A DNA stretch of 64,000 nt from Cytophagaceae bacterium (lineage in GTDB: Bacteria > Bacteroidota > Bacteroidia > Cytophagales > Cytophagaceae): NCBI GenBank assembly GCA_021151805.1, contig JAGKWN010000001.1:10746-74745 (forward strand). The letters run 5' to 3'. A program made the position numbers and the translations under genes. Within the stretch, counting starts at the first letter, position 1. Every line of letters begins with the position of its first letter. Shown here piece after piece: positions 3,077 to 63,068 of this stretch. The notes under the pieces are model-generated. The model had not been told where the DNA came from and made no database searches. It was given only the letters and a program-made list of their open reading frames with translations.

Positions 3077-5098
3077 TTAGTAGTATTGAAGTTCCTTCAA
3101 TTTGTCCTGAATCCGCCTGATCGGAAGAAAATTATCTTCCAGTGCTTTGGCGAAAGGAACGGCCGTATCCAGGCTGCCCACACGCATAACGGGCGCATCC
3201 AGGTGTTCAAATGCGTTTTCGCTGATCCAGGCTGCTATTTCAGCCGAAATAGAACCTGTCAGTGTATCTTCATTGATCACTAAAACCCTGCCGGTTTTTA
3301 ATACACTTTTTAGAACTGTTTCCTTATCCCAGGGCAACAAACTTCTCAGGTCAATAATATCCGCAGAAGCAGCTTCTTTTTTCACGGCCTCTTTTGCCCA
3401 CCATACAGCATTGCCATATGCAACAATTGTCAGGTCATCACCTTCTTCAACAACCAACGCTTCACCGATGGGTACCGTATAGTAATCGTCCGGAATCTGA
3501 GCGCTGATGGAGCGGTATAAGGCTTTATGTTCAAAATACAGAACGGGATTTGGATCTTCAATAGCTGCCAATAGCAGGCCTTTCGCATCATATGGGTTTG
3601 ATGGATAAACAATTTTCAGACCAGGTGTATGGAAGAACCAGGCTTCATTAGACTGAGAATGGAAAGGACCGCCGCTGGTACCGGCACCCGTAGGCATACG
3701 GATAACCACATCGGCTTTCTGTTCCCAACGATAGTGGGATTTCGCAAGGTTGTTTACCACCTGATTAAAACCACTGGTAACGAAATCGGCAAATTGCATT
3801 TCGATCACCGACTTGTAATCTTTTACGGCAAGCCCCAAGCCGGCACCAATAATTGCTGATTCACACAAAGGCGTATTACGTACACGTTCTTTGCTGAAAC
3901 GCTCCACCAGACCTTCTGTAACTTTGAATACACCGCCGTATTCAGCAATATCCTGGCCCATCTGGATCAGCCGCGGAAATTTTTCCATGCCAAGTCTCAA
4001 GCCGTCGCTGATCGCGTCAATAAAACGTTTTTCACTGCTTAAGGTTGTTCTTGGGCGTATCTTCATATGCACATAAGGCGCATACATATCTTCTTCCTCA
4101 ATAGAACTATCGGCCACAGGCTCCTTTTCGTTATCTGTATACGTCCAGGCTTCTTCGATGGAGCTCTTGATTTTTTCTTTAATATCTTCGATTTCGTGAA
4201 TAGTAATCATTCCCTCATCCAGCAGGTAGCGCTCGAAATTTTCTACCGGATCTTTCTTTGCCCAGGCTGCAAACAATTCCTCGGGAATATATTTGGTCCC
4301 TGAAGCTTCTTCATGACCACGCATGCGGAAGGTAATGGCCTCAACCAATACCGGTCTGGATTCGCGGCGAACGTATTCAGCCAGCTCACGGATTTTTGTA
4401 TAAACTTCTAAAATATTATTGCCATCGATGGTATGGGTTTCAATGGCATAGGCTGGTCCTTTTTCTTTAAAGCTTTTTATGCGGAACTGCTCTTCCAGCG
4501 GGGTAGATAGACCGTAGCCATTATTCTCAACCAGAAAAATTACCGGCAGATCCCACACCGAAGCCAGGTTCAGGGCTTCATGGAAATCACCTTCGCTGGT
4601 ACCGCCATCACCTGTGAAAACAAGGGTGGCACGTTTGCTGCGGGAAAGTTTCTCCGCCAATGCAATCCCATCGGCAACAGCCATCTGTGGGCCAAGGTGA
4701 GAGATCATTCCAACAATATGATGTTCTTTACTGCCGAAATGGAAGGAACGGTCACGACCTTTGGTAAAACCGGAAGGTTTACCCTGAAACTGAGAGAACA
4801 AGCGATGCAATGGAATGCCGCGGCTGGTGAAAATACCCAGGTTTCTATGCAGAGGTAAAATATATTCTTCTTTTTCAAGCGCACAACCAACTCCTACAGA
4901 AATCGCTTCCTGACCAATCCCTGAAAACCATTTGGAGATTTTTCCCTGACGAAGAAGGAACAACATCTTTTCTTCGATCATTCTGGGCTTCAAAAGCTCT
5001 TTGTATAAGCGGATCAGTGTGTCCTGATCAATATTTTTTCGGTCAAATGATATCATAAAGTCGTTTATCGCTTTTAAAGACGAACCGCATCCTTTCAC
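3077..5098 (-). CDS. 2-oxoacid (branched-chain/pyruvate type) dehydrogenase E1 component, fused alpha-beta subunits
   Basis: 673 aa. The N-terminal half has the TPP motif GDGGTSEGDFHEALN...ENNGYG (E1 alpha). The C-terminal half, GQDIAEYGGVFKVTEGL...PLCE, resembles E1 beta/transketolase. The true start may be the internal MISFDRKN. Confidence 0.85.
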   Translation of the reverse strand: MKGCGSSLKAINDFMISFDRKNIDQDTLIRLYKELLKPRMIEEKMLFLLRQGKISKWFSGIGQEAISVGVGCALEKEEYILPLHRNLGIFTSRGIPLHRLFSQFQGKPSGFTKGRDRSFHFGSKEHHIVGMISHLGPQMAVADGIALAEKLSRSKRATLVFTGDGGTSEGDFHEALNLASVWDLPVIFLVENNGYGLSTPLEEQFRIKSFKEKGPAYAIETHTIDGNNILEVYTKIRELAEYVRRESRPVLVEAITFRMRGHEEASGTKYIPEELFAAWAKKDPVENFERYLLDEGMITIHEIEDIKEKIKSSIEEAWTYTDNEKEPVADSSIEEEDMYAPYVHMKIRPRTTLSSEKRFIDAISDGLRLGMEKFPRLIQMGQDIAEYGGVFKVTEGLVERFSKERVRNTPLCESAIIGAGLGLAVKDYKSVIEMQFADFVTSGFNQVVNNLAKSHYRWEQKADVVIRMPTGAGTSGGPFHSQSNEAWFFHTPGLKIVYPSNPYDAKGLLLAAIEDPNPVLYFEHKALYRSISAQIPDDYYTVPIGEALVVEEGDDLTIVAYGNAVWWAKEAVKKEAASADIIDLRSLLPWDKETVLKSVLKTGRVLVINEDTLTGSISAEIAAWISENAFEHLDAPVMRVGSLDTAVPFAKALEDNFLPIRRIQDKLKELQYY

Positions 5099-54484: not shown

Positions 54485-54898
54485 ATGTCAGATTTGCCCA
54501 CAATTGCTGTTGTTTGTGCTGTTATTAAGCAACAGGAAAAATATTTCATCGCACAGAGAAGTGCCAGAATGAAAATGCCATTGAAATGGGAATTCCCAGG
54601 AGGTAAAGTAGAGAGCGGAGAAACAAACGTACAGGCAATTGTGCGTGAATTGAAAGAAGAACTGGATATTGATATCGATGTAATTGAAGAGCATCCATAC
54701 TACTTACACAACTATCCGAATTTCATTTTAAAATTAACACCATTGGAGGCTGTTATCAAAGGCGGGAATCTGACTTTGAAAGAGCATGCGAATTACAAAT
54801 GGGTTGCACCTGAGGATTTCATTAATTATGATTTTTCAGAAGGTGATATTAATATTGTAAAAGCGATCTGTAAACGAGACAGAGGTAACGCAGCTTAA
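54485..54898 (+). CDS. NUDIX hydrolase (MutT-like)
   Basis: 137 aa. Nudix box GGKVESGETNVQAIVRELKEELDI. Confidence 0.88.
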   Translation: MSDLPTIAVVCAVIKQQEKYFIAQRSARMKMPLKWEFPGGKVESGETNVQAIVRELKEELDIDIDVIEEHPYYLHNYPNFILKLTPLEAVIKGGNLTLKEHANYKWVAPEDFINYDFSEGDINIVKAICKRDRGNAA

Positions 54899-54947
54899 TT
54901 GATCTTACTATATTCATTGAGACTAAACGATACGTCTCATTATTCTT

Positions 54948-55412
54948 ATGAACAACAACGATATTTTACGCAGGCTCAGATACACATTTGATTTTAATGA
55001 TACTAAAATGATTGCTTTGTTTGCATTGGGCGACAAAGAGGTAACGCGTGCTGAAATAAGTAACTGGCTGAAGCGGGAGGATGATCCGGAGTTTCAGGAA
55101 CTGTATGATAGAGAGCTGGCGGTATTTTTAAATGGCTTCATCGTAGACAAGCGCGGTAAAAAAGATGGACCGGCACCGGCACCGGAAAAAAGCCTGAGCA
55201 ATAATACTATTTTCAGAAAACTTAAAATTGCGTTGAATCTGCAGGATGATGGTATACTGGAAATTCTGGCTTTGGCAGATATGGAGTTCAGTAAGCATGA
55301 GCTTAGCGCTTTATTCAGAAACCCGAGCCAAAGTCAATACAGGCCTTGTAAAGATCAGGTATTGCGTAATTTTATTCATGGCTTGCAGTTGAAATACAGA
55401 GGTGATTCGTAA
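54948..55412 (+). CDS. DUF1456 (YehS-like) protein
   Basis: 154 aa. Two copies of the NDILRRLRY.F / IFRKLKIAL type repeat. Confidence 0.7.
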   Translation: MNNNDILRRLRYTFDFNDTKMIALFALGDKEVTRAEISNWLKREDDPEFQELYDRELAVFLNGFIVDKRGKKDGPAPAPEKSLSNNTIFRKLKIALNLQDDGILEILALADMEFSKHELSALFRNPSQSQYRPCKDQVLRNFIHGLQLKYRGDS

Positions 55413-55481
55413 CGGATATATTTTCATCCCATTTTTTAGTGAAGAGTGTACAAAATGATTAGGCCTGTTAAGTAAATTTTT

Positions 55482-56063
55482 ATGGATAATGCGTCAAAGA
55501 CAATTAAAGAATGGGTAGATGAGTTTTCGTCTGACATGTTCTCATGGGCTTTTTACAAAACTTCCGATAAAGAAACTGCAAAGGATCTGGTGCAGGAAAC
55601 ATTCATAGCCGCTTTTGAGTCATTTAAATCTTTTGAAAATAGAAGTAAGCCCAAAACATGGTTATTTTCTATTCTTAAAAATAAGATTATAGATCATCAT
55701 CGAAAAATGTATAAAAATGCTGTTGTATCTTCTGATAAAATAGTTGAAGAACACAGCACTATTTTATTTTCATATTTGTTTAGCGAAGAAGGAGAATGGA
55801 GAGAAAAAAACAGCGTATCATCTTTGGAAGACAATAGCATTGAATTGCTGGACAATTTTGAATTCAACGAGGTGTTGTCCAAATGTTTTCAAAAGTTACC
55901 AATAACCTGGAATTCCGCCATTCAATTAAAATATATTGAAGATAAAGATGCCAAGGATATTTGTCAGGAATTAGATGTATCAACGTCTAACTATTGGCAA
56001 ATCATTCATAGGGCGAAGTTGCAATTAAGAGCATGTTTAGAGCAAGGCTGGTTTAAAAAATGA
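55482..56063 (+). CDS. ECF-type RNA polymerase sigma-70 family factor
   Basis: 193 aa. Region 2 is AKDLVQETFIAAFESF...WLFSILKNKIIDHHRK. Region 4 HTH is DAKDICQELDVSTSNYWQIIHRAKLQLR. Confidence 0.88.
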   Translation: MDNASKTIKEWVDEFSSDMFSWAFYKTSDKETAKDLVQETFIAAFESFKSFENRSKPKTWLFSILKNKIIDHHRKMYKNAVVSSDKIVEEHSTILFSYLFSEEGEWREKNSVSSLEDNSIELLDNFEFNEVLSKCFQKLPITWNSAIQLKYIEDKDAKDICQELDVSTSNYWQIIHRAKLQLRACLEQGWFKK

Positions 56064-56335
56064 AAAGTTATAATTCGTATTTGATATCATGTCAGAAGGC
56101 TTCTTTTTTGATTGAAAAGAAACTTGGCCATGCATTGAATTCAAAAGAAACGGTGCAACTGTTCATACATAAACTTATTTGCAATGTTTGTCGCAAATAT
56201 GAAAAACAAAGCCGTGCGCTGGACCTTATTTTAAGAAAAAAAATAGCAGAAGATGTTTCTGAGCCAGGTAATTTTTCGTTGGATGCAGAGTCATTGGATA
56301 AATTTAAGTATTTGATTAAAAGTAAATTACAGTAA
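56060..56335 (+). CDS. soluble zinc-binding (ZAS, HxxxCxxC) anti-sigma factor
   Basis: 91 aa. ATGA overlap with the sigma gene. By my count Cys11, His37, Cys41 and Cys44 (HKLICNVC). No hydrophobic segment. Confidence 0.7.
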   Translation: MKSYNSYLISCQKASFLIEKKLGHALNSKETVQLFIHKLICNVCRKYEKQSRALDLILRKKIAEDVSEPGNFSLDAESLDKFKYLIKSKLQ

Positions 56336-56428
56336 ATAAAAAATATTTTTTCTCTTTTTTGTAAGGAATCGCACGAGGCCGCGACTATACCATTGAAGTT
56401 AATCAAAACCCACAAACATTTTAACACA

Positions 56429-56722
56429 ATGGTAAAGAAAACAAAAAGTATTTTATGGTCTGCAGTAGCTGCAGGTGCAATGTTAGGATCTGCAGGCATT
56501 TTTGCGAGCTGCAGTACGGAATCAAAGGAAGTAACTACTGAAATCAAAGCAGACAGCGCCGAACAAAAATGCGGAGCTGAGAAAAAATGTGGTGCAAGCA
56601 AGGACTCAGCAGAAGCTAAGTGTGGTGCAGCGAAAGATTCTGCTGAAGCTAAATGCGGGGCTTCTAAAGCAACTGAAGCTAAATGCGGCGAAGGTAAATG
56701 CGGTGCAGATAAAAAGAAATAA
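56429..56722 (+). CDS. Cys-repeat lipoprotein-type precursor peptide (six KCG repeats), putative MNIO substrate
   Basis: 97 aa from ATG 56429. Signal/lipobox MVKKTKSILWSAVAAGAMLGSAGIFASC. Then QKCGAE, KKCGAS, AKCGAA, AKCGAS, AKCGEG and GKCGAD in a Lys/Ala/Glu/Ser-only context. Confidence 0.7.
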   Translation: MVKKTKSILWSAVAAGAMLGSAGIFASCSTESKEVTTEIKADSAEQKCGAEKKCGASKDSAEAKCGAAKDSAEAKCGASKATEAKCGEGKCGADKKK

Positions 56723-56730
56723 TCTGCTCA

Positions 56731-56760
56731 AAGGCGGAGTAGTTGCTCCGCCTTTTTTAT
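56731..56760 (+). terminator. intrinsic terminator/attenuator between precursor and MNIO gene
   Basis: ggcggag-tagttg-ctccgcc (56733-56752) is followed by tttttt. Confidence 0.75.
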
Positions 56761-56780
56761 TCATCTAATCTTTGGATAGT

Positions 56781-57614
56781 ATGATTGGTATAGGTTTTAG
56801 AAAAGACTTTGCAAAAGACTTTTTAAGTTCATCCATTCTTAAGCCTGATTTTATTGAGGTTGCTCCGGAAAATTGGATTGGCATAGGAGGTTTCTGGAAG
56901 AAGAAACTTTACGAAGCTCTGGAAAAATATCCACTATATACACATGGGCTTTCTTTGTCTATAGGTAGTCCGGATGAACTCGACTTTGAATTATTAAAAG
57001 CTATAAAAAATTTTTTAACCGAGACAGGCGCAGAGATGTACTCAGAACATTTAAGTTATTCGAAATGTGATAACGCTCATTTATACGATCTGTTACCAGT
57101 TCCATTTACAGCTGATGCTGTTATGCATATCTCGAAGCGTATTCAAACCATACAGGATTTTCTTGAACGTAAACTTGCTATTGAAATTGTAAGTTATTAT
57201 TCGCCGGTTGCGGCAGAAATGAGTGAGGTTGAATTTATAAATGCCATTCTGAAAGAAGCAGATTGCGATTTATTGCTTGATGTGAACAATATTTATGTGA
57301 ATGGATTTAATCACTCTTATGATCCTTATGCTTTTATTAGTCAGCTTCCTTTAGAAAGGGCGGCTTATATACATATGGCGGGCCATGATCAGGTTTCAGA
57401 AACATTGATTATTGATACGCATGGTGAAGCTATTATTGATCCGGTATATGATCTGTTTGAATATACAATGAATCGGGTTAATCGTGATGTTCCAGTATTA
57501 CTGGAACGCGATTTTAACATTCCTCAACTCCCCGAATTGCAAACAGAACTTGAACGGTTAAAAGCAATAAAAACAGAAACCCTGAAAAAAGAATTTTATG
57601 GCATACACCGATAG
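56781..57614 (+). CDS. DUF692 family protein (MNIO, MbnB/BufB-like multinuclear non-haem iron oxidase)
   Basis: About 277 aa from ATG 56781 (MIGIGFRKDF); the track start at 56772 is TTG. Blocks HGLSLSIGS, YSEHLSY, LLDVNNIYVN, IHMAGHD, IDTHGE and LLERD resemble the DUF692 TIM barrel. Confidence 0.8.
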   Translation: MIGIGFRKDFAKDFLSSSILKPDFIEVAPENWIGIGGFWKKKLYEALEKYPLYTHGLSLSIGSPDELDFELLKAIKNFLTETGAEMYSEHLSYSKCDNAHLYDLLPVPFTADAVMHISKRIQTIQDFLERKLAIEIVSYYSPVAAEMSEVEFINAILKEADCDLLLDVNNIYVNGFNHSYDPYAFISQLPLERAAYIHMAGHDQVSETLIIDTHGEAIIDPVYDLFEYTMNRVNRDVPVLLERDFNIPQLPELQTELERLKAIKTETLKKEFYGIHR

Positions 57615-58356
57615 TACACAACCGTATCAGCGTATGCTGGCAAATTATACGCGCACGGGTATTGAAGAAAGAATACCCGGAACGAAGCAGGAGGGAATTC
57701 AACGCTACAGAACAATGATATATAATGTAGTGAATGATTCTTTAATCACTGCATATCCATTGACAAAAGGACTCTTGACTGAAGAAGAATGGAATGATAG
57801 TGTTCAGCATTTTTTTTCATCACATGCATGTCAATCGCCTTTTTTATGGCGAATGCCATTTGAATTCCTTGAGTTTGTAAAGATGAATGAGCTAACGCTC
57901 CAAAATAAATATCCGTTTTTAAATGATTTGCTTTTATACGAATGGGTAGAAATAGAAGTGTTCATGATGGAAGATATTGATGTTACTTATACATCAAAAG
58001 GGAAAATAGAAAATGGTTTATTAATGTTAAATCCTGCATGTGTGGTTCAATACTTTCAATATCCTGTATATGATAAGCAAATACAGGGTATTTCGAAAAA
58101 AGATAAAGGGCATTATTTTTTGCTTACACACAGAAATCCTTTAACAGGGCGTGTTTCATTTCTTGAAATTGCGCCTATGTTTGCACGAATGTTCGAATTT
58201 CTTTCAGATGAAGCATATACGATCGATCAGTTAATTGATCAATTTTTAAATGAAACTTCAATAACAATCGATCTCAACAAAAAAATCGAAATAATGGATT
58301 TTTTTAAAGCATGTATTGATAAACAAATTATTCTTGGATATAAAATAACAAATTAA
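57598..58356 (+). CDS. DUF2063-like partner protein (MbnC/BufC-like)
   Basis: 252 aa, with a 17-nt overlap with the DUF692 gene. The N-terminal pattern YRTMIYNVVNDSLITAYPLTKGLL..EEW...QHFF.....QSPF.W.MPFEFLEFV matches my recollection of DUF2063. Confidence 0.6.
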   Translation: MAYTDSTQPYQRMLANYTRTGIEERIPGTKQEGIQRYRTMIYNVVNDSLITAYPLTKGLLTEEEWNDSVQHFFSSHACQSPFLWRMPFEFLEFVKMNELTLQNKYPFLNDLLLYEWVEIEVFMMEDIDVTYTSKGKIENGLLMLNPACVVQYFQYPVYDKQIQGISKKDKGHYFLLTHRNPLTGRVSFLEIAPMFARMFEFLSDEAYTIDQLIDQFLNETSITIDLNKKIEIMDFFKACIDKQIILGYKITN

Positions 58357-58367
58357 AATACACAACT

Positions 58368-58799
58368 ATGTTAACACAAAAATACGAAATGTATAAAAAA
58401 GCATTGAACAAACTTCAGGACATATCTTTATTGTTCATGCGTTTGGTCCTTGCTTATGGTTTTTATAATCCAGCATTAATGAAAGTTAAAAACATTGATG
58501 GAATTATTTCCTGGTTTGAAAGCATGGGCATGCCAATGCCTGCGTTAAATGCATATTTGGCAACGACAACTGAAGTATTGGGCGTAATATTACTCACAAT
58601 AGGTTTAGGTGTAAGGATCATTACTATCCCATTGATGATTACCATGGTTGTTGCCATCGGAACCGTTCATTGGTCTCATGGGTTTGAAGCAGGAAATAAT
58701 GGTTTTGAAATTCCTTTGTATTACATGCTTATGCTTTTTATACTGCTAACGCATGGCGCAGGGAAATATAGCCTGGATTATTTATTACGCAAAAAATAG
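58368..58799 (+). CDS. DoxX family membrane protein
   Basis: 143 aa with 4 TM segments. LFMRLVLAYGF start, typical of DoxX. Confidence 0.8.
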   Translation: MLTQKYEMYKKALNKLQDISLLFMRLVLAYGFYNPALMKVKNIDGIISWFESMGMPMPALNAYLATTTEVLGVILLTIGLGVRIITIPLMITMVVAIGTVHWSHGFEAGNNGFEIPLYYMLMLFILLTHGAGKYSLDYLLRKK

Positions 58800-58868
58800 T
58801 ACCTATAGTTTATTTTCAGAAAACACCAGTATATTTTATGATGCTGGTGTTTTATTTTCTGTCAACGT

Positions 58869-60200
58869 TTATATTGTTGAAGTTGTATTCGGTATTTCAA
58901 TCAGAAATTGTGTGAAGGAATTTACTCTTGATTTTACAGTTATTGTTCCGTTTAGTTTCTCAACCATTTCTTTAACGATATACAAGCCTAGCCCGGAGCC
59001 TGTGCTTTGATTGCTTGCCCTGTAAAACATATCAAAAACATGCTCGATATATTCAGTCGGAATTCCGATGCCATTATCTTTGATCAGAATGATTGTTGAT
59101 TTTTTTGTGCTGGAAATATCAATATCCATGCTGGGTTGTTCTGCTTCTTTGCGGTAGTATTTGAAGGAGTTTGAAATCAAATTATTCAGAATGGTTTTAA
59201 TTCTGTATGGATCGGAATACAAGTAGAATGGTGTATTGATCCGGATTGTTTTTTTCATTGCACCAGCCTGTTCAAAGAAACTAAGTTCTTCAAAAATATC
59301 ATTCAGTATAGATTCAAATTGTATCGGTTGTGTGATTAAATCTGTTTTTAAATTTCTGGAAAGCTGAATGATCTGCTGAATATGCAAGTCTAATTTGTTG
59401 ATGCAATTTTCCTGCATGCGTACCAGTTCTTGAATAGAATCTGGATCTTTTTCATTTTTGATCAGCGTTACAAGTCCCATGAGCGAAGTTAATGGAGCCC
59501 GCATGTCATGCGAGGTACGATATACGAAGCTGTCTAATTCTTCATTTAGTTTTTTCAGGGAATTATTTTTTGAGAGTAGTTTATTGTTCAGGCCGGTGAG
59601 TTTTAAATTTATAAATTGATTAACCCGGAGAATTACATAGAAAAATAAAATACAGAAAAGTATTGTTGTGATATAGTTGAATTCATATTCATACAAGTTT
59701 GTTGTTGTATCATTACCCAACAATTTGTAATCCGTTGTTTCTAAAATAACAATCAGTGTGCTTGTAATCGCAAGTGAAAGTAAAATGTATTTATAATCTT
59801 CAATACTATAAAAGGCAAACGTTGCAAAGATGATAATCAGCATGGCAAGGTTCATTCCTGATTCGCGACCCAGCGATGCTGCTTTGACGAACATGAATAC
59901 ACTTCCGATTACCATCATAATCAACTTGGCCTGATTGTAATTTCCTTTTTTGATCAGGAATAAAACAAAAGGTATGACCGTAGAAAAGAATAATAAATAA
60001 TTCAGGATGATCAGAAAGGAGAGTTTGAAAAATATTCCGATCACTAAATAGATAGAACCAAATAGCACTGCTACCAGACACATAGCCACAAGTAATTCAA
60101 TACGTATGATTTCGTCATACGGAACTTGTCTGGCGGATAAACTTCTCAGGTCAATGAATTTGCGTATTATCCGGCCGCGGATAAAATCCAATATTTGCAT
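58869..60200 (-). CDS. membrane sensor histidine kinase
   Basis: 443 aa. About 6 N-terminal TM segments, H-box SHDMRAPLTSL, and the G-boxes DNGIGI and GSGLGLYIVK. Confidence 0.88.
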   Translation of the reverse strand: MQILDFIRGRIIRKFIDLRSLSARQVPYDEIIRIELLVAMCLVAVLFGSIYLVIGIFFKLSFLIILNYLLFFSTVIPFVLFLIKKGNYNQAKLIMMVIGSVFMFVKAASLGRESGMNLAMLIIIFATFAFYSIEDYKYILLSLAITSTLIVILETTDYKLLGNDTTTNLYEYEFNYITTILFCILFFYVILRVNQFINLKLTGLNNKLLSKNNSLKKLNEELDSFVYRTSHDMRAPLTSLMGLVTLIKNEKDPDSIQELVRMQENCINKLDLHIQQIIQLSRNLKTDLITQPIQFESILNDIFEELSFFEQAGAMKKTIRINTPFYLYSDPYRIKTILNNLISNSFKYYRKEAEQPSMDIDISSTKKSTIILIKDNGIGIPTEYIEHVFDMFYRASNQSTGSGLGLYIVKEMVEKLNGTITVKSRVNSFTQFLIEIPNTTSTI

Positions 60201-60279
60201 GGGGAGCCAAATCTTAGATACGACTCAAATATAACGCAATAATTTTGAATAAAGTACCTGTGATTGAAATGGTTATTCC

Positions 60280-60495
60280 CTAATCTATTTTTTTGAATCT
60301 TGGAGTGGATATGCCATTAAGGAGAATGTGTTCTGAAAACATAGCTAAAGGACGTACCCAGAGTTGTCCGGGGCTTTTTACTGCAAAATAAACAACTAGA
60401 TCTTCTTCTGTTTCACTGTGTTTGGCGGTGCCTATTACTTCGTATTGGTTTCCTTTATAATGCAAATAGAGGCCCGGGCTGATCAGGTTAGACAT
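60280..60495 (-). CDS. DUF1653 domain protein
   Basis: 71 aa. YLHYKGNQYEVIG...HSETEEDLVVY...LWVRPLAMF. Confidence 0.7.
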   Translation of the reverse strand: MSNLISPGLYLHYKGNQYEVIGTAKHSETEEDLVVYFAVKSPGQLWVRPLAMFSEHILLNGISTPRFKKID

Positions 60496-60497
60496 GG

Positions 60498-63068
60498 TTA
60501 CAATATTGAAAGTTTGCTGTCGATTTCTTTTGAAACAAGATATCCAATTTCGATCAGTTTTTTAACATCTTCCGATAAAGATTCGACGGGCTCATTGTTT
60601 TTTATTTTATGTTCAATTTTAGTTATTAAAGAAGCCAGCTTTTCAATAGAGAGAATGCGCACACAGGATTTATATTGATGTAAACTAAAATCAATAGCTG
60701 TAGCATCTTTCTTATCTAATGCAGTTGCAATTTCCTGCAGCAGCTGGGCGTTTTGTTTTTGGAACATCTCCAGCATTTCCCTGTAAATAACAGCACTGTT
60801 TTTGGAGAGCTTTTCTATAAAATCAAAATTGGAATAGACAGGTGTAAATTCGCTTTTAACAGCATTTTTAAATACCCAGGTATCAATTACCGTATAAAGA
60901 TCTTCTTCGGTATAAGGCTTACCAAGGTGTGCATTCATGCCGGCTTCAAGACAATTGTTTATGTCTTCCTGAAATACATTTGCAGTTAAGCCGATGATGG
61001 GTGTTTTTAGTTTATTATGACGTAACTGTTCTGTTGCCTGTAAACCATCGCATACAGGCATCTGCATATCCATGAGTATAATATCGTAGTTGAATGATGA
61101 TGCTTTGTTGATTGCCTGCAAACCATTTTCAACAATTTCATACGTACATCCTAAAGATTGTAATGTGTATGCAGCTAGTGTCCGGTTCATCTCATTGTCA
61201 TCAGCAACTAAAACCGTTACTTTTTTAGGGAAGGGTTTAATGGAAATTTTTGTTGCGTCGGTGTCAATATTTTTTTCGCCTAAATGAAATGGCAGAACAA
61301 AAAAGAAACGTGTACCATAACTTTTATCCCGATCATTTGTGAATACAGGACTTTGAACGTTTATTGTGCCATCCATTAAATGGACGATTTCTTTTACGAT
61401 TGACAAACCCAGACCGGAGCCTCCATAATTGACCGATATGGAATCGTTTGCCTGCGTGAAGCTTTCGAAGATGTCCTCCTGTTTATCGGGTTGTATACCT
61501 ATACCAGTATCAGTAACGGAGAATTCAATGTAATAAACACCAGCTTCATTTTTTATGAATTGAATCTGAACAACAATGCCTCCGTGAGTGGTAAATTTTA
61601 AGGCATTGCCAATGATATTCACCAGAACCTGTGAAATACGTTGTGGGTCGCCAATAAGATAATCCGGAATTTTGTCATCAATGATTAGACGGAAGTCAAG
61701 ATCTTTTTCTGAGGCTGTATGCTGAAAAGGACTTAAGACAGATCTGATAATCTCTTTGAGATGAAAAGATTTTTTTTCAATGGTAACTTTTCCTTCTTCA
61801 ATTTTACTGATATCTAAAATATTTCCGATCAGCTTTAATAATAGTTCGCCGGAAATAGAAATGTTTTTTAAAAGTGTTTTTTGTTCAGGTGTTAATTCCT
61901 GTTTATTCAGAATGTTGGTAAAACCTAAAATTGCGTTAATAGGAGTGCGGATCTCATGACTCATATTTGATAAAAACCGTGTTTTAAACTGGCTGGCGCT
62001 TTCAGCCTTCTCTTTTGCAATCCGCATCAGATCCTGTTGCTGCAAGGCTGATAGTTCCGCTTTTTTCAGCGGTGTAATATCAATGATCGCACCATGCATC
62101 ACTAGTCCGTTTGATTCTTTTGTCACATATCCGTTCGAGATCAGGAATTTTTCAGTACCAGTTGATGTACGTATTTTAAATTCATGCGAGTAGCTTTGAT
62201 TCGGTGTGAAGATTTCATTTCTTCTTTTTTGAACTTTATCCGGGTCTGCATCAACGACCAGTGAATCTATAAAGTCTGGTGCAGGGATAGTGTTTTTATT
62301 TACTTCAAAGATGTTATACATTTCATTTGACCAGGATGTTTCCTGCTTGTCAATGAAATATTCAAAGGTTCCCATTTGAGTAAGCTGCTGAGCATATTCA
62401 AGCAATGTGTTTTTTATTTTTAATTCCTTTACAATTTCTCTTCGTTGTTTTATATCCAGTAAAATGAAATAGTAGGATGATACTAAAACCAGGAATCCTA
62501 AAATACCTGATAAAACAATCATAACAGGAGCATTCTTATTGAGTGTTTCGGCTGTGTTGGTGCGGGAAATCAATAATCTTTCTTCATCTTGTTTCATCTG
62601 TTCAATAATGCGGTTGACCTGCTCTGTAGAAACCTGGCCTTTTTTCATTAAGGCAATTATTTCAGTTTGGTCTGCATTGCTGTTGGAAAGATTTATCAAA
62701 CTGTTGAATAGAAAAAAACGCTCGTTTAAATAAACTTTTAATGTGTCTATGTATAGCTGTTGTTGCGGGTTATCTAATATTAAAGAATCAATTATGTGAA
62801 GTTGATTTTTAATATCCTTTCGTGCTACTTCCTGTTGTTCAAGATGAGTAACATCTTTAGTAAGCGCGTAGCCTCTTACTCCGGATTCTGCATTTTTAAT
62901 ATCAGAGTGAATGCTCTCCAGATTTAGAAATACTTTATTGGTATGATTTACCCAATGGTTTGCCGAACGCAGCCCCTGAATATTGAAATAAGAATATACA
63001 AATGCTGAGACAAGTAAGAGAAGAGCAATAAAAAAAAAGATATTAAGTGCGCGGGTTGAAAGCTTCAT
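60498..63068 (-). CDS. hybrid sensor histidine kinase/response regulator (CHASE3-TM-PAS-HisKA-HATPase-REC-HPt)
   Basis: 856 aa. N-terminal TM plus a CHASE3-like region, H-box SHEIRTPIN, GSGLGLSIVK, a receiver (VLVADDNEMNR...ILMDMQMPVCDG...K), and a C-terminal HPt-like HQYKSCVRILS. Confidence 0.88.
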   Translation of the reverse strand: MKLSTRALNIFFFIALLLLVSAFVYSYFNIQGLRSANHWVNHTNKVFLNLESIHSDIKNAESGVRGYALTKDVTHLEQQEVARKDIKNQLHIIDSLILDNPQQQLYIDTLKVYLNERFFLFNSLINLSNSNADQTEIIALMKKGQVSTEQVNRIIEQMKQDEERLLISRTNTAETLNKNAPVMIVLSGILGFLVLVSSYYFILLDIKQRREIVKELKIKNTLLEYAQQLTQMGTFEYFIDKQETSWSNEMYNIFEVNKNTIPAPDFIDSLVVDADPDKVQKRRNEIFTPNQSYSHEFKIRTSTGTEKFLISNGYVTKESNGLVMHGAIIDITPLKKAELSALQQQDLMRIAKEKAESASQFKTRFLSNMSHEIRTPINAILGFTNILNKQELTPEQKTLLKNISISGELLLKLIGNILDISKIEEGKVTIEKKSFHLKEIIRSVLSPFQHTASEKDLDFRLIIDDKIPDYLIGDPQRISQVLVNIIGNALKFTTHGGIVVQIQFIKNEAGVYYIEFSVTDTGIGIQPDKQEDIFESFTQANDSISVNYGGSGLGLSIVKEIVHLMDGTINVQSPVFTNDRDKSYGTRFFFVLPFHLGEKNIDTDATKISIKPFPKKVTVLVADDNEMNRTLAAYTLQSLGCTYEIVENGLQAINKASSFNYDIILMDMQMPVCDGLQATEQLRHNKLKTPIIGLTANVFQEDINNCLEAGMNAHLGKPYTEEDLYTVIDTWVFKNAVKSEFTPVYSNFDFIEKLSKNSAVIYREMLEMFQKQNAQLLQEIATALDKKDATAIDFSLHQYKSCVRILSIEKLASLITKIEHKIKNNEPVESLSEDVKKLIEIGYLVSKEIDSKLSIL

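Follow-up and report, generated by a model that had tools for sequence, protein, structure and literature searches.

A compact cluster of six genes, all on the plus strand, lies at positions 55482-58799 of a 64-kb stretch of a contig (JAGKWN010000001.1) from a Cytophagaceae bacterium; this whole stretch is referred to here as the window, and all coordinates are positions within it. The cluster encodes an extracytoplasmic function (ECF) sigma factor, a soluble zinc-associated anti-sigma (ZAS) factor, a small Cys-rich precursor peptide, a multinuclear non-haem iron oxidase (MNIO), a partner protein of the enzyme and a DoxX-family membrane protein. Taken together, the sequence evidence makes it quite probable that these genes form a stress-inducible biosynthetic operon for a lipid-anchored peptide metallophore of the oxazolin/captophorin (HvfA) family, in a Cytophaga-like member of the Bacteroidota.

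Biosynthetic genes and the precursor peptide

The genes for the sigma factor (193 aa, of the Neisseria sigma-E/H. influenzae RpoE2 type; 55482-56063) and the anti-sigma factor (91 aa; 56060-56335) are joined via an ATGA overlap and are followed, after a gap of 93 nt (56336-56428), by the precursor gene (97 aa; 56429-56722). The MNIO gene (277 aa; 56781-57614) overlaps that of the partner (252 aa; 57598-58356) by 17 nt, and 11 nt separate the latter from the DoxX gene (143 aa; 58368-58799). For the MNIO, the ATG at 56781 suits the length of the homologues (276-277 aa) better than the upstream TTG at 56772. The six genes, with their overlaps and gaps, had been listed in the sequence-only reading, an earlier description made from the letters and open reading frames (ORFs) of the window, and every coordinate given there was exact. 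Likewise, its assignment of the last three products to DUF692, DUF2063 and DoxX was borne out by profile hidden Markov models, in which all three scored above cut-off and far beyond chance.

The MNIO matched PF05114 (DUF692) with 320.5 bits (cut-off 25; E=9.6e-96) over profile positions 2-261 of 263, and exceeded the cut-off of the HvfB equivalog model NF003818 (381.4 versus 360). The other NCBIfam models gave scores under their own cut-offs, namely BufB (260, cut-off 310), ApyH (73, cut-off 400), ChrH (48.5, cut-off 600) and MbnB (46.5, cut-off 325). The protein also matched the crystal structure of a DUF692 protein (PDB 3BWW, E=1.4e-71). The iron-ligand candidates, whose presence was at issue in the sequence-only reading, were checked and are intact: H55, H90, E135, D167, N170, H198, D212, H214 and E242. 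All nine are identical to the residues of 3BWW and, within the aligned range, to those of MbnB, and the ligand motifs are shared by 3BWW, TglH and MbnB. N170, D212 and H214 align with N175, D242 and H244 of HvfB, the substitution of which abolishes activity; the 25-residue spacing offset relative to the HvfB numbering is due to an insertion in 3BWW that is absent from the window MNIO. The motifs LERDF (D244, F245) and FRKD (R7, K8) are present as well, their mapping to D249/F250 and R15/R16 of FonB being by motif alignment only, and NgoB carries ERDF and RR at the positions aligned with them. In overall sequence, the MNIO is 46% identical to NgoB and 85% identical to the MNIO of C. aurantiaca.

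The partner, of the HvfC/PME1 type, contains both DUF2063 (PF09836; 56.4 versus cut-off 27.2, E=3.7e-15) and NGO1945_C (PF22106; 38.7 versus cut-off 27, E=1.3e-9), and weakly matches the NGO1945 structure (PDB 3DEE, E=2.6e-4). Partners evolve fast in this clade, with 40% identity where the identity of the MNIOs is 74%. An extra divergence of the partner in the Cytophaga clade, in co-evolution with a lost precursor N-domain, was considered and dropped: the deficit was only 2-4 identity points (12 in one bin, n=5), which is too weak. DoxX was recognized by the Pfam model (68.3 bits versus 23.6, E=9.4e-19) and by the HvfX model NF050144 (134.4 versus 80). In Caulobacter, bufferins are modified and functional even without DoxX (PMC11626156); the literature search yielded no relevant study on the role of DoxX, or on Cytophaga.

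The precursor contains seven Cys residues, of which Cys28 lies in the signal peptide and the other six in KCG triplets at positions 48, 54, 65, 76, 86 and 91. The latter form six ExKCG motifs (EQKCG, EKKCG, three copies of EAKCG, and EGKCG), and the coding DNA contains tandem repeats with periods of 33 nt and 15 nt, corresponding to 11 and 5 aa. The HvfA-family 'KCGExKCG' domain (NF050137) was detected with a score of 37.1, above its cut-off of 19.5, and no match to DUF2282 was obtained with Pfam. The signal, residues 1-27, has a basic n-region and a hydrophobic h-region (maximum Kyte-Doolittle value over 19 residues, KD19, of 1.72), and leads into a lipobox, IFASC, which includes Cys28 (codon 56510-56512) and fits the PROSITE-type pattern [LIVMFWSTAG]2-[LIVMFYSTAGCQ]-[AGS]-C.

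A large protein collection contained 14 close homologues of the precursor, and those with organism names belong to Cytophaga. Cys28 and the F[AS]SC segment are invariant in all 14. NCBI names the homologues of C. hutchinsonii and Cytophaga sp. as HvfA family, and an automatic UniProt rule labels the C. hutchinsonii orthologue 'Lipoprotein'. For a wider comparison, 80 loci with the closest MNIOs were fetched from Bacteroidota and Ignavibacteriota, most of which have their genes in the same order as the window (sigma, anti-sigma, precursor, MNIO, partner, DoxX). A lipobox was found in just the two Cytophaga loci, and in none of the remaining 77 candidate ORFs adjoining an MNIO gene. Some of these 77 are short ORFs picked by a crude selection rule; at least 60 are recognizable precursors, with a signal of the signal peptidase I (SPI) type, an N-terminal segment LFxYxxLGSGxExR and K[DE]GKCGEGKCG repeats. 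The LFxYxxLGSGxExR segment is missing from the Cytophaga-clade precursors, that of the window included. The sequence-only reading had described an atypical precursor with a lipoprotein-type signal, and both parts of this description are real: Cys28 is invariant in the 14 homologues, there is no lipobox in the 77 other ORFs, and the precursor is a variant specific to the clade.

Several features of the related precursors were recorded alongside. In its longer form, LFxYxxLGSGxE[VL]RxxLL, the segment that separates the SPI signal from the first KCG is common to most Bacteroidota and Ignavibacteriota precursors (loci L003-L080; e.g., L004 3581-3928 and L018 3410-3913), and it may be the sequence recognized by the partner protein. 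In the Chitinophaga precursors of L049, L072, L075 and L080, KCG is replaced by KCS, KCT, KCA or KCV, as in EGKCTPGKCSPGKCAG; FonBC has been reported to accept only small residues after Cys, and it is this position that the Chitinophaga precursors vary. In a Flavobacteriales metagenome-assembled genome (MAG; L012, ~3640-3990), a frameshift seems to break the precursor after its fourth KCG, with other KCG motifs following in another frame, which points either to an error of assembly or to a pseudogene.

The cluster is assigned to the HvfABCX/oxazolin group (EGKCG, or 'Lys-Cys captophorin'; the Hvf/Ngo branch), and not to the bufferin or gig groups proper. HvfA receives six modifications from HvfBC and, once modified, binds Cu(I) (PMC11252979). 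Later work reassigned the modification to 5-thiooxazole and gave the class, gonophorin included, the name captophorins (PMC13097082); both NgoA and HvfA carry 5-thiooxazoles (PMC13097082; preprint). The EGKCG family has been surveyed at ~2,000 members, mostly Pseudomonadota (PMC12452194). Oxazolins with lipoprotein signals were predicted in 2026, and NedA of N. dentiae was shown to be triacylated, with a total of -12 Da at three EGKCG motifs (PMC13056109).

Regulator pair and promoter motifs

The sigma factor contains Sigma70_r2 (E=3.4e-16) and Sigma70_r4_2 (E=4.3e-7), both above their Pfam cut-offs, and is 36% identical to Ecf of N. gonorrhoeae across residues 30-193. The closest NCBIfam model, TIGR02943, scored 134, below its cut-off of 162. 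In the anti-sigma factor, the zinc signature C-x25-H-x3-C-x2-C is complete (C11, H37, C41 and C44), with the same spacing as the ligands of N. meningitidis MseR (Cys4/His30/Cys34/Cys37; PMC2893595). It lacks any hydrophobic or transmembrane segment and would therefore be soluble. The protein scored 36.6 with the anti-sigma-E subfamily model NF052368 (cut-off 50, E=2.9e-9), and is 26% identical to the gonococcal anti-sigma factor, with all four ligands in register. An ORF of 76-105 aa with a soluble C-x25/26-H-x3-C-x2-C signature follows the sigma gene in 57 of 61 related loci. As judged from these sequence features, the anti-sigma factor is of the MseR/HrsE ZAS type and not NrsF, in agreement with the ZAS claim of the sequence-only reading.

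In Neisseria and Haemophilus, the orthologous operon is known to be under ECF/ZAS control (PMC2893595, PMC7907618); in H. influenzae, HOCl acts on the hvf ('DoxX') operon through the RpoE2/HrsE pair. An initial guess at the corresponding promoter, GGAAY-N14-19-CGAC/CGTC, matched none of 79 upstream regions and was discarded. A conserved motif, TGTMAGG-N15-CGWCTW, was recognized by reading the regions upstream of the precursors in related loci, and the window contains two sites without mismatch, versus 0.26 expected at up to one mismatch. One site (56360-56387) is in the 93-nt gap, ~40 nt upstream of the precursor ATG, where the promoter-like element as a whole reads TGTAAGGAAT-12 nt-CGACTATA (56360-56389). 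The other (55962-55989) is inside the sigma gene, ~70 nt upstream of the anti-sigma ATG, as part of the element TGTCAGGAAT-12 nt-CGTCTAAC (55962-55991). Both fit the Neisseria sigma-E consensus, which consists of a -35 element GTMAGBWTT, a spacer of 12-13 nt and a -10 element CGTCTAAH (PMC2893595), and on this match they are predicted to act as promoters. The gonococcal promoter upstream of doxX, TGTCAG-16 nt-CGTCTAAC, has spacing identical to that of the window motifs.

Among the 60 related loci with a sigma gene upstream, the motif (with up to one mismatch) occurs inside the sigma gene in 55 and between the end of the sigma gene and the MNIO gene in 45. Upstream of the sigma gene it was found in none of the 60, nor was it found there in the window. 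Control of the cluster by its sigma factor, as proposed in the sequence-only reading, is thus backed by a conserved sigma-E-type motif that precedes the precursor, and control by the ECF/ZAS pair is supported by this sequence test, with experimental precedent in other organisms.

In loci without an adjacent sigma gene (L005, L007, L008, L016 and others), inspection by eye revealed that the motif, or a one-base variant of it, still precedes the precursor; the cognate sigma factor is presumably encoded elsewhere in these genomes, as in H. influenzae. A different arrangement was seen in eight Flavobacteriales/Cryomorphaceae MAGs (L022, L025-L029, L037 and L066), in which no promoter motif precedes the precursor, the internal motif is weakened (TCT replacing NCG) and the anti-sigma gene runs nearly straight into the precursor gene. 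This layout suggests a single transcript and a different wiring.

The internal motif spans codons C161-N170, which encode part of region 4.2 of the sigma factor. In 59 related sigma genes, the Cys codon of the motif is always TGT (background 47%), the Lys codon always AAG (26%) and the Gln codon always CAG, while Ser is TCT in 43 (background 17%) and Asn is AAC in 49 (background 40%). At the eighth codon the amino acid varies (P/T/S/A), yet NCG is kept in 51 of the 59. As a control, all 39 conserved amino-acid columns across 60 aligned sigma genes were analyzed. The major codon made up a fraction of 0.25-0.77 in the columns outside the motif, with one column at 0.89 (GAA, background 0.76), and fixed codons appeared at motif columns only (TGT 1.0; AAG 1.0, against a background of 31% for AAG). 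In the two other conserved Cys columns of the sigma factor, the major codon fraction was 0.57. Trp aside, the best-conserved third positions of the entire sigma gene are those of the motif. This conservation of synonymous sites in 60 relatives supports a sigma-dependent promoter within the sigma gene, and the best reading of the internal motif is that it would yield an anti-sigma mRNA without sigma, i.e., negative feedback.

Between the precursor and MNIO genes, a GC-rich hairpin (56730-56755; 11 pairs, 6 of them GC) is followed by TTTTATTC, and the element as a whole (56730-56763) is a likely partial terminator, or attenuator. A comparable hairpin with a T tract was detected in 33 of the 80 related loci by a strict rule for ungapped stem, loop and T tract, versus 1.25 in shuffled controls; the rule misses hairpins with bulges or long loops. 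An earlier terminator classifier, based on the last bracket of the minimum free energy fold, undercounted (23 of 80) and was abandoned. The folds of the precursor/MNIO intergenic regions had a median z of -4.0. Such an element would fit production of the precursor in excess over the enzymes, and translational coupling of the three genes that follow it would agree with their 17-nt overlap and 11-nt gap. In two Chitinophaga loci (L009 3799-4000 and L010 3713-4000), the spacer, filled with GGCAGT/TGCCAAC-like repeats, has grown to 200-290 nt and shows very strong folding (z of -6.5 and -8.3, respectively).

A hairpin of terminator type, found by hairpin scan at 58820-58853, marks the end of the operon. 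The next gene is convergent and encodes a histidine kinase (58869-60200, minus strand). It belongs to a minus-strand segment (58869-63068) with two sensor kinases, between which lies a small DUF1653 gene. One is a membrane HisKA/HATPase kinase, the other a CHASE3-PAS hybrid kinase that also contains receiver and Hpt domains; no tie of these genes to the cluster was seen. Neither a dedicated protease nor an ABC exporter is encoded in the flanks of the cluster, as the sequence-only reading had stated, and an Rfam scan of 54800-59400 returned no RNA family.

Alternative explanations and opposing evidence

The alternatives to a lipid-anchored oxazolin concern the class of the cluster, the fate of the precursor and the role of the internal motif. 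Methanobactin was rejected on the MbnB score (46.5 versus 325), the signal peptide in place of a leader and the lack of a transporter in the flanks; chryseobasin and aminopyruvatide were rejected on their model scores (ChrH 48.5 and ApyH 73). A bufferin (Buf1/Buf2, gig-type) cluster, which would produce a soluble periplasmic copper buffer under a SigF/NrsF-like pair, has more in common with the window. The enzyme superfamily, the partner type and DoxX are shared, the BufB model still yields 260 bits, bufferin and oxazolin MNIOs are inseparable in similarity networks (PMC12452194), and both install 5-thiooxazoles. The bufferin/gig-type architecture of the sequence-only reading accordingly stands as to the MNIO/DUF2063/DoxX layout but fails as to the class: HvfB is above its cut-off (381 versus 360) and BufB under its own (260 versus 310), DUF2282 is absent while the KCG repeats match the HvfA-family domain, the anti-sigma factor is a soluble ZAS protein instead of the membrane protein NrsF, and the promoter motif is that of Neisseria sigma-E. 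A bufferin cluster is thus very unlikely. It is hardly credible that the small ORF encodes an ordinary Cys-rich lipoprotein, binding metal via unmodified thiols, and that the MNIO-partner pair acts on some other substrate. In the related loci, the precursor gene always directly precedes that of the MNIO; HvfBC, FonBC, NgoBC and NedBC have been shown to act on ExKCG motifs; and the window MNIO has D244/F245, the dyad (by motif alignment) that typifies MNIOs of the Lys-Cys type. Such a view could appeal to the finding that unmodified HvfA likewise binds 2-3 Cu(I) (PMC11252979), and to the fact that we infer, rather than observe, the Cys modification in the window precursor. As for export, the peptide might instead be released by signal peptidase I (IFA|SC) into the periplasm or the medium, in which case Cys28 would be a seventh thiol or a site of modification. 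The residues at -3 (I) and -1 (A) satisfy the rule for this peptidase, and all other Bacteroidota and Ignavibacteriota precursors examined use SPI-type signals. This is considered rather improbable, in view of the invariance of Cys28 and F[AS]SC in 14 homologues while adjacent h-region residues vary, the absence of Cys at this position from all 77 SPI-type relatives, and the UniProt rule that marks the orthologue as a lipoprotein.

The internal motif, in turn, might be no promoter and merely reflect the conserved amino acids of region 4.2 (C-K/Q-E/D ... S-N). It does sit in a conserved protein segment, and it is not present in the gonococcal ecf gene. Synonymous sites elsewhere in the 60 sigma genes are, however, randomized while those of the motif are fixed; one motif column swaps its amino acid yet retains CG, and the identical motif, with identical spacing, also stands before the precursor. 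This explanation is therefore unlikely.

Several observations weigh against the operon being what is proposed here. The partner scored below the cut-off of the HvfC model NF050145 (124.5 versus 142), and the precursor failed the HvfA equivalog model (23.4 versus 95), lacks the 17-residue double-EGKCG repeat and contains only one exact EGKCG, the other five of its six motifs being E[AQK]KCG. Cleavage by signal peptidase I after IFA could occur as an alternative to lipidation. With regard to regulation, no sigma-A promoter was found for the sigma gene, and oxidants fail to induce the orthologous sigma factor of N. meningitidis (PMC2893595), which makes the inducing signal in the present cluster uncertain. 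An oxazolin/captophorin operon remains the favored reading. The enzyme keeps its metal residues, the anti-sigma factor keeps its zinc site, and each of the six genes has its match in the ecf-hvf module of Neisseria and Haemophilus.

Relation to named systems and proposed mechanism

The closest counterpart is the gonophorin operon of N. gonorrhoeae and N. meningitidis (NGO1948-NGO1943 and NMB2140-NMB2145; doxX, ngoA, ngoB, ngoC, ecf/rpoE and mseR). The gonococcal sequences were taken from NZ_CP119142.1, a 2.17-Mb N. gonorrhoeae chromosome that, through a database error, is misfiled as a plasmid in a plasmid collection with almost no annotation. All six window proteins have counterparts in this operon (identities of 36% for sigma, 26% for anti-sigma, 46% for the MNIO, 24% for the partner and 34% for DoxX), the precursor repeats are alike, and the two operons agree in promoter motif and spacing. 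The gene order differs, with sigma and anti-sigma first in the window. In Neisseria, a single sigma-E promoter upstream of doxX drives all of the genes, including that of sigma, and thereby gives positive autoregulation, whereas the window has no motif before the sigma gene, one inside it and one before the precursor. Moreover, the signal of NgoA is SPI-type, while the window precursor has a lipobox.

The HvfABCX system of non-typeable H. influenzae resembles the window cluster in its HvfB-family MNIO, DUF2063 partner and DoxX, in a Sec-exported precursor with six modified Cys residues in xGKCG motifs (the modification in the window being predicted), and in an ECF sigma factor with a small cytoplasmic ZAS anti-sigma factor (RpoE2/HrsE). 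The Haemophilus regulator genes lie elsewhere on the chromosome, in contrast to those of the window, which adjoin the precursor. HvfA possesses a disulfide-containing N-terminal region, and the window precursor fails the HvfA equivalog model; the HvfB homologue of H. somni carries an insertion of ~25 residues that is absent from the window MNIO. NedA of Neisseria dentiae and other DAG-RiPPs (PMC13056109) combine a lipobox signal for signal peptidase II with EGKCG-type motifs, and an MNIO and partner with no dedicated protease or exporter, as in the window. NedA, however, is a betaproteobacterial product with three motifs, compared with the six ExKCG motifs, the 11- and 5-residue repeats and the predicted lipidation of the Cytophaga peptide.

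The bufferins (BufABCD of Caulobacter vibrioides) and gig operons share with the window cluster the MNIO, DUF2063 and DoxX layout, Sec signal peptides and a nearby ECF sigma factor, along with the 5-thiooxazole chemistry and copper stress function that are predicted for the window. They differ in having DUF2282 or 6/12-Cys precursors, and SigF with the membrane protein NrsF as regulators. For the internal promoter, the nearest parallel is P3 of rseA in E. coli, a sigma-E-dependent promoter inside rpoE from which the anti-sigma gene is expressed without sigma (PMC8595263). P3 is from an unrelated ECF group, at a distance of ~230 nt upstream of rseA, whereas the window motif is ~70 nt before the anti-sigma gene, in the region 4.2 codons; in addition, E. 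coli has a sigma-E-dependent promoter upstream of rpoE, and no such upstream autoregulatory motif was seen in the window.

For the window cluster we infer the modification, lipidation, metal binding, promoter activity and inducing signal, which together suggest the following mechanism. The soluble zinc anti-sigma factor would hold the ECF sigma factor until a thiol-reactive signal (an oxidant, HOCl, an electrophile or possibly Cu) frees it. Free sigma would fire the promoter at 56360-56389, from which most transcripts would end at the hairpin and yield excess precursor, while read-through past the hairpin would supply the translationally coupled MNIO, partner and DoxX. It would also fire the promoter in its own region 4.2 codons, giving anti-sigma mRNA without sigma, a negative feedback that would reset the switch; with no motif upstream of the sigma gene, positive autoregulation would be lacking. 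In the cytoplasm, the MNIO-partner heterodimer, with O2, would turn each of the six ExKCG Cys residues into a 5-thiooxazole (-4 Da each). The peptide would then exit via Sec, Cys28 would be diacylglycerylated and signal peptidase II would remove the signal. The predicted product is an envelope lipopeptide of ~70 residues that would chelate Cu(I) with pairs of thiooxazoles.

Much of this was already known, including the cluster type, the Hvf models, ECF/ZAS control in Neisseria and Haemophilus, and lipidated oxazolins. The novelty implied in the sequence-only reading was overstated, as NCBIfam models exist for all four Hvf parts and the Cytophaga homologues were already named. What appears to be new, from the sequence comparisons, is the precursor architecture particular to Cytophaga, the putative promoter within the sigma coding sequence, and the Neisseria-type promoter with a ZAS pair in clusters of Bacteroidota and Ignavibacteriota. 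A broader proposal, which is put forward tentatively as one possibility, is that the Cytophaga clade turned a soluble oxazolin-type copper peptide into a membrane-anchored lipopeptide, exchanging the SPI signal and conserved N-domain for a lipobox, and runs it on a purely negative-feedback circuit. In this circuit sigma would drive transcription of its own inhibitor via a promoter in the codons of its promoter-recognition helix (region 4.2), a dual coding kept across Bacteroidota and Ignavibacteriota.

The current picture of MNIO chemistry is unchanged by the window cluster. Its promoter embedded in the sigma gene would be a clean, testable instance of overlapping protein and regulatory codes, and its precursor offers a natural, predicted lipid-anchored variant with six sites, with which to test where such copper peptides act. 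For the family as a whole, these observations extend the ecf-hvf stress module of Neisseria and Haemophilus, promoter motif included, to free-living Bacteroidota and Ignavibacteriota.

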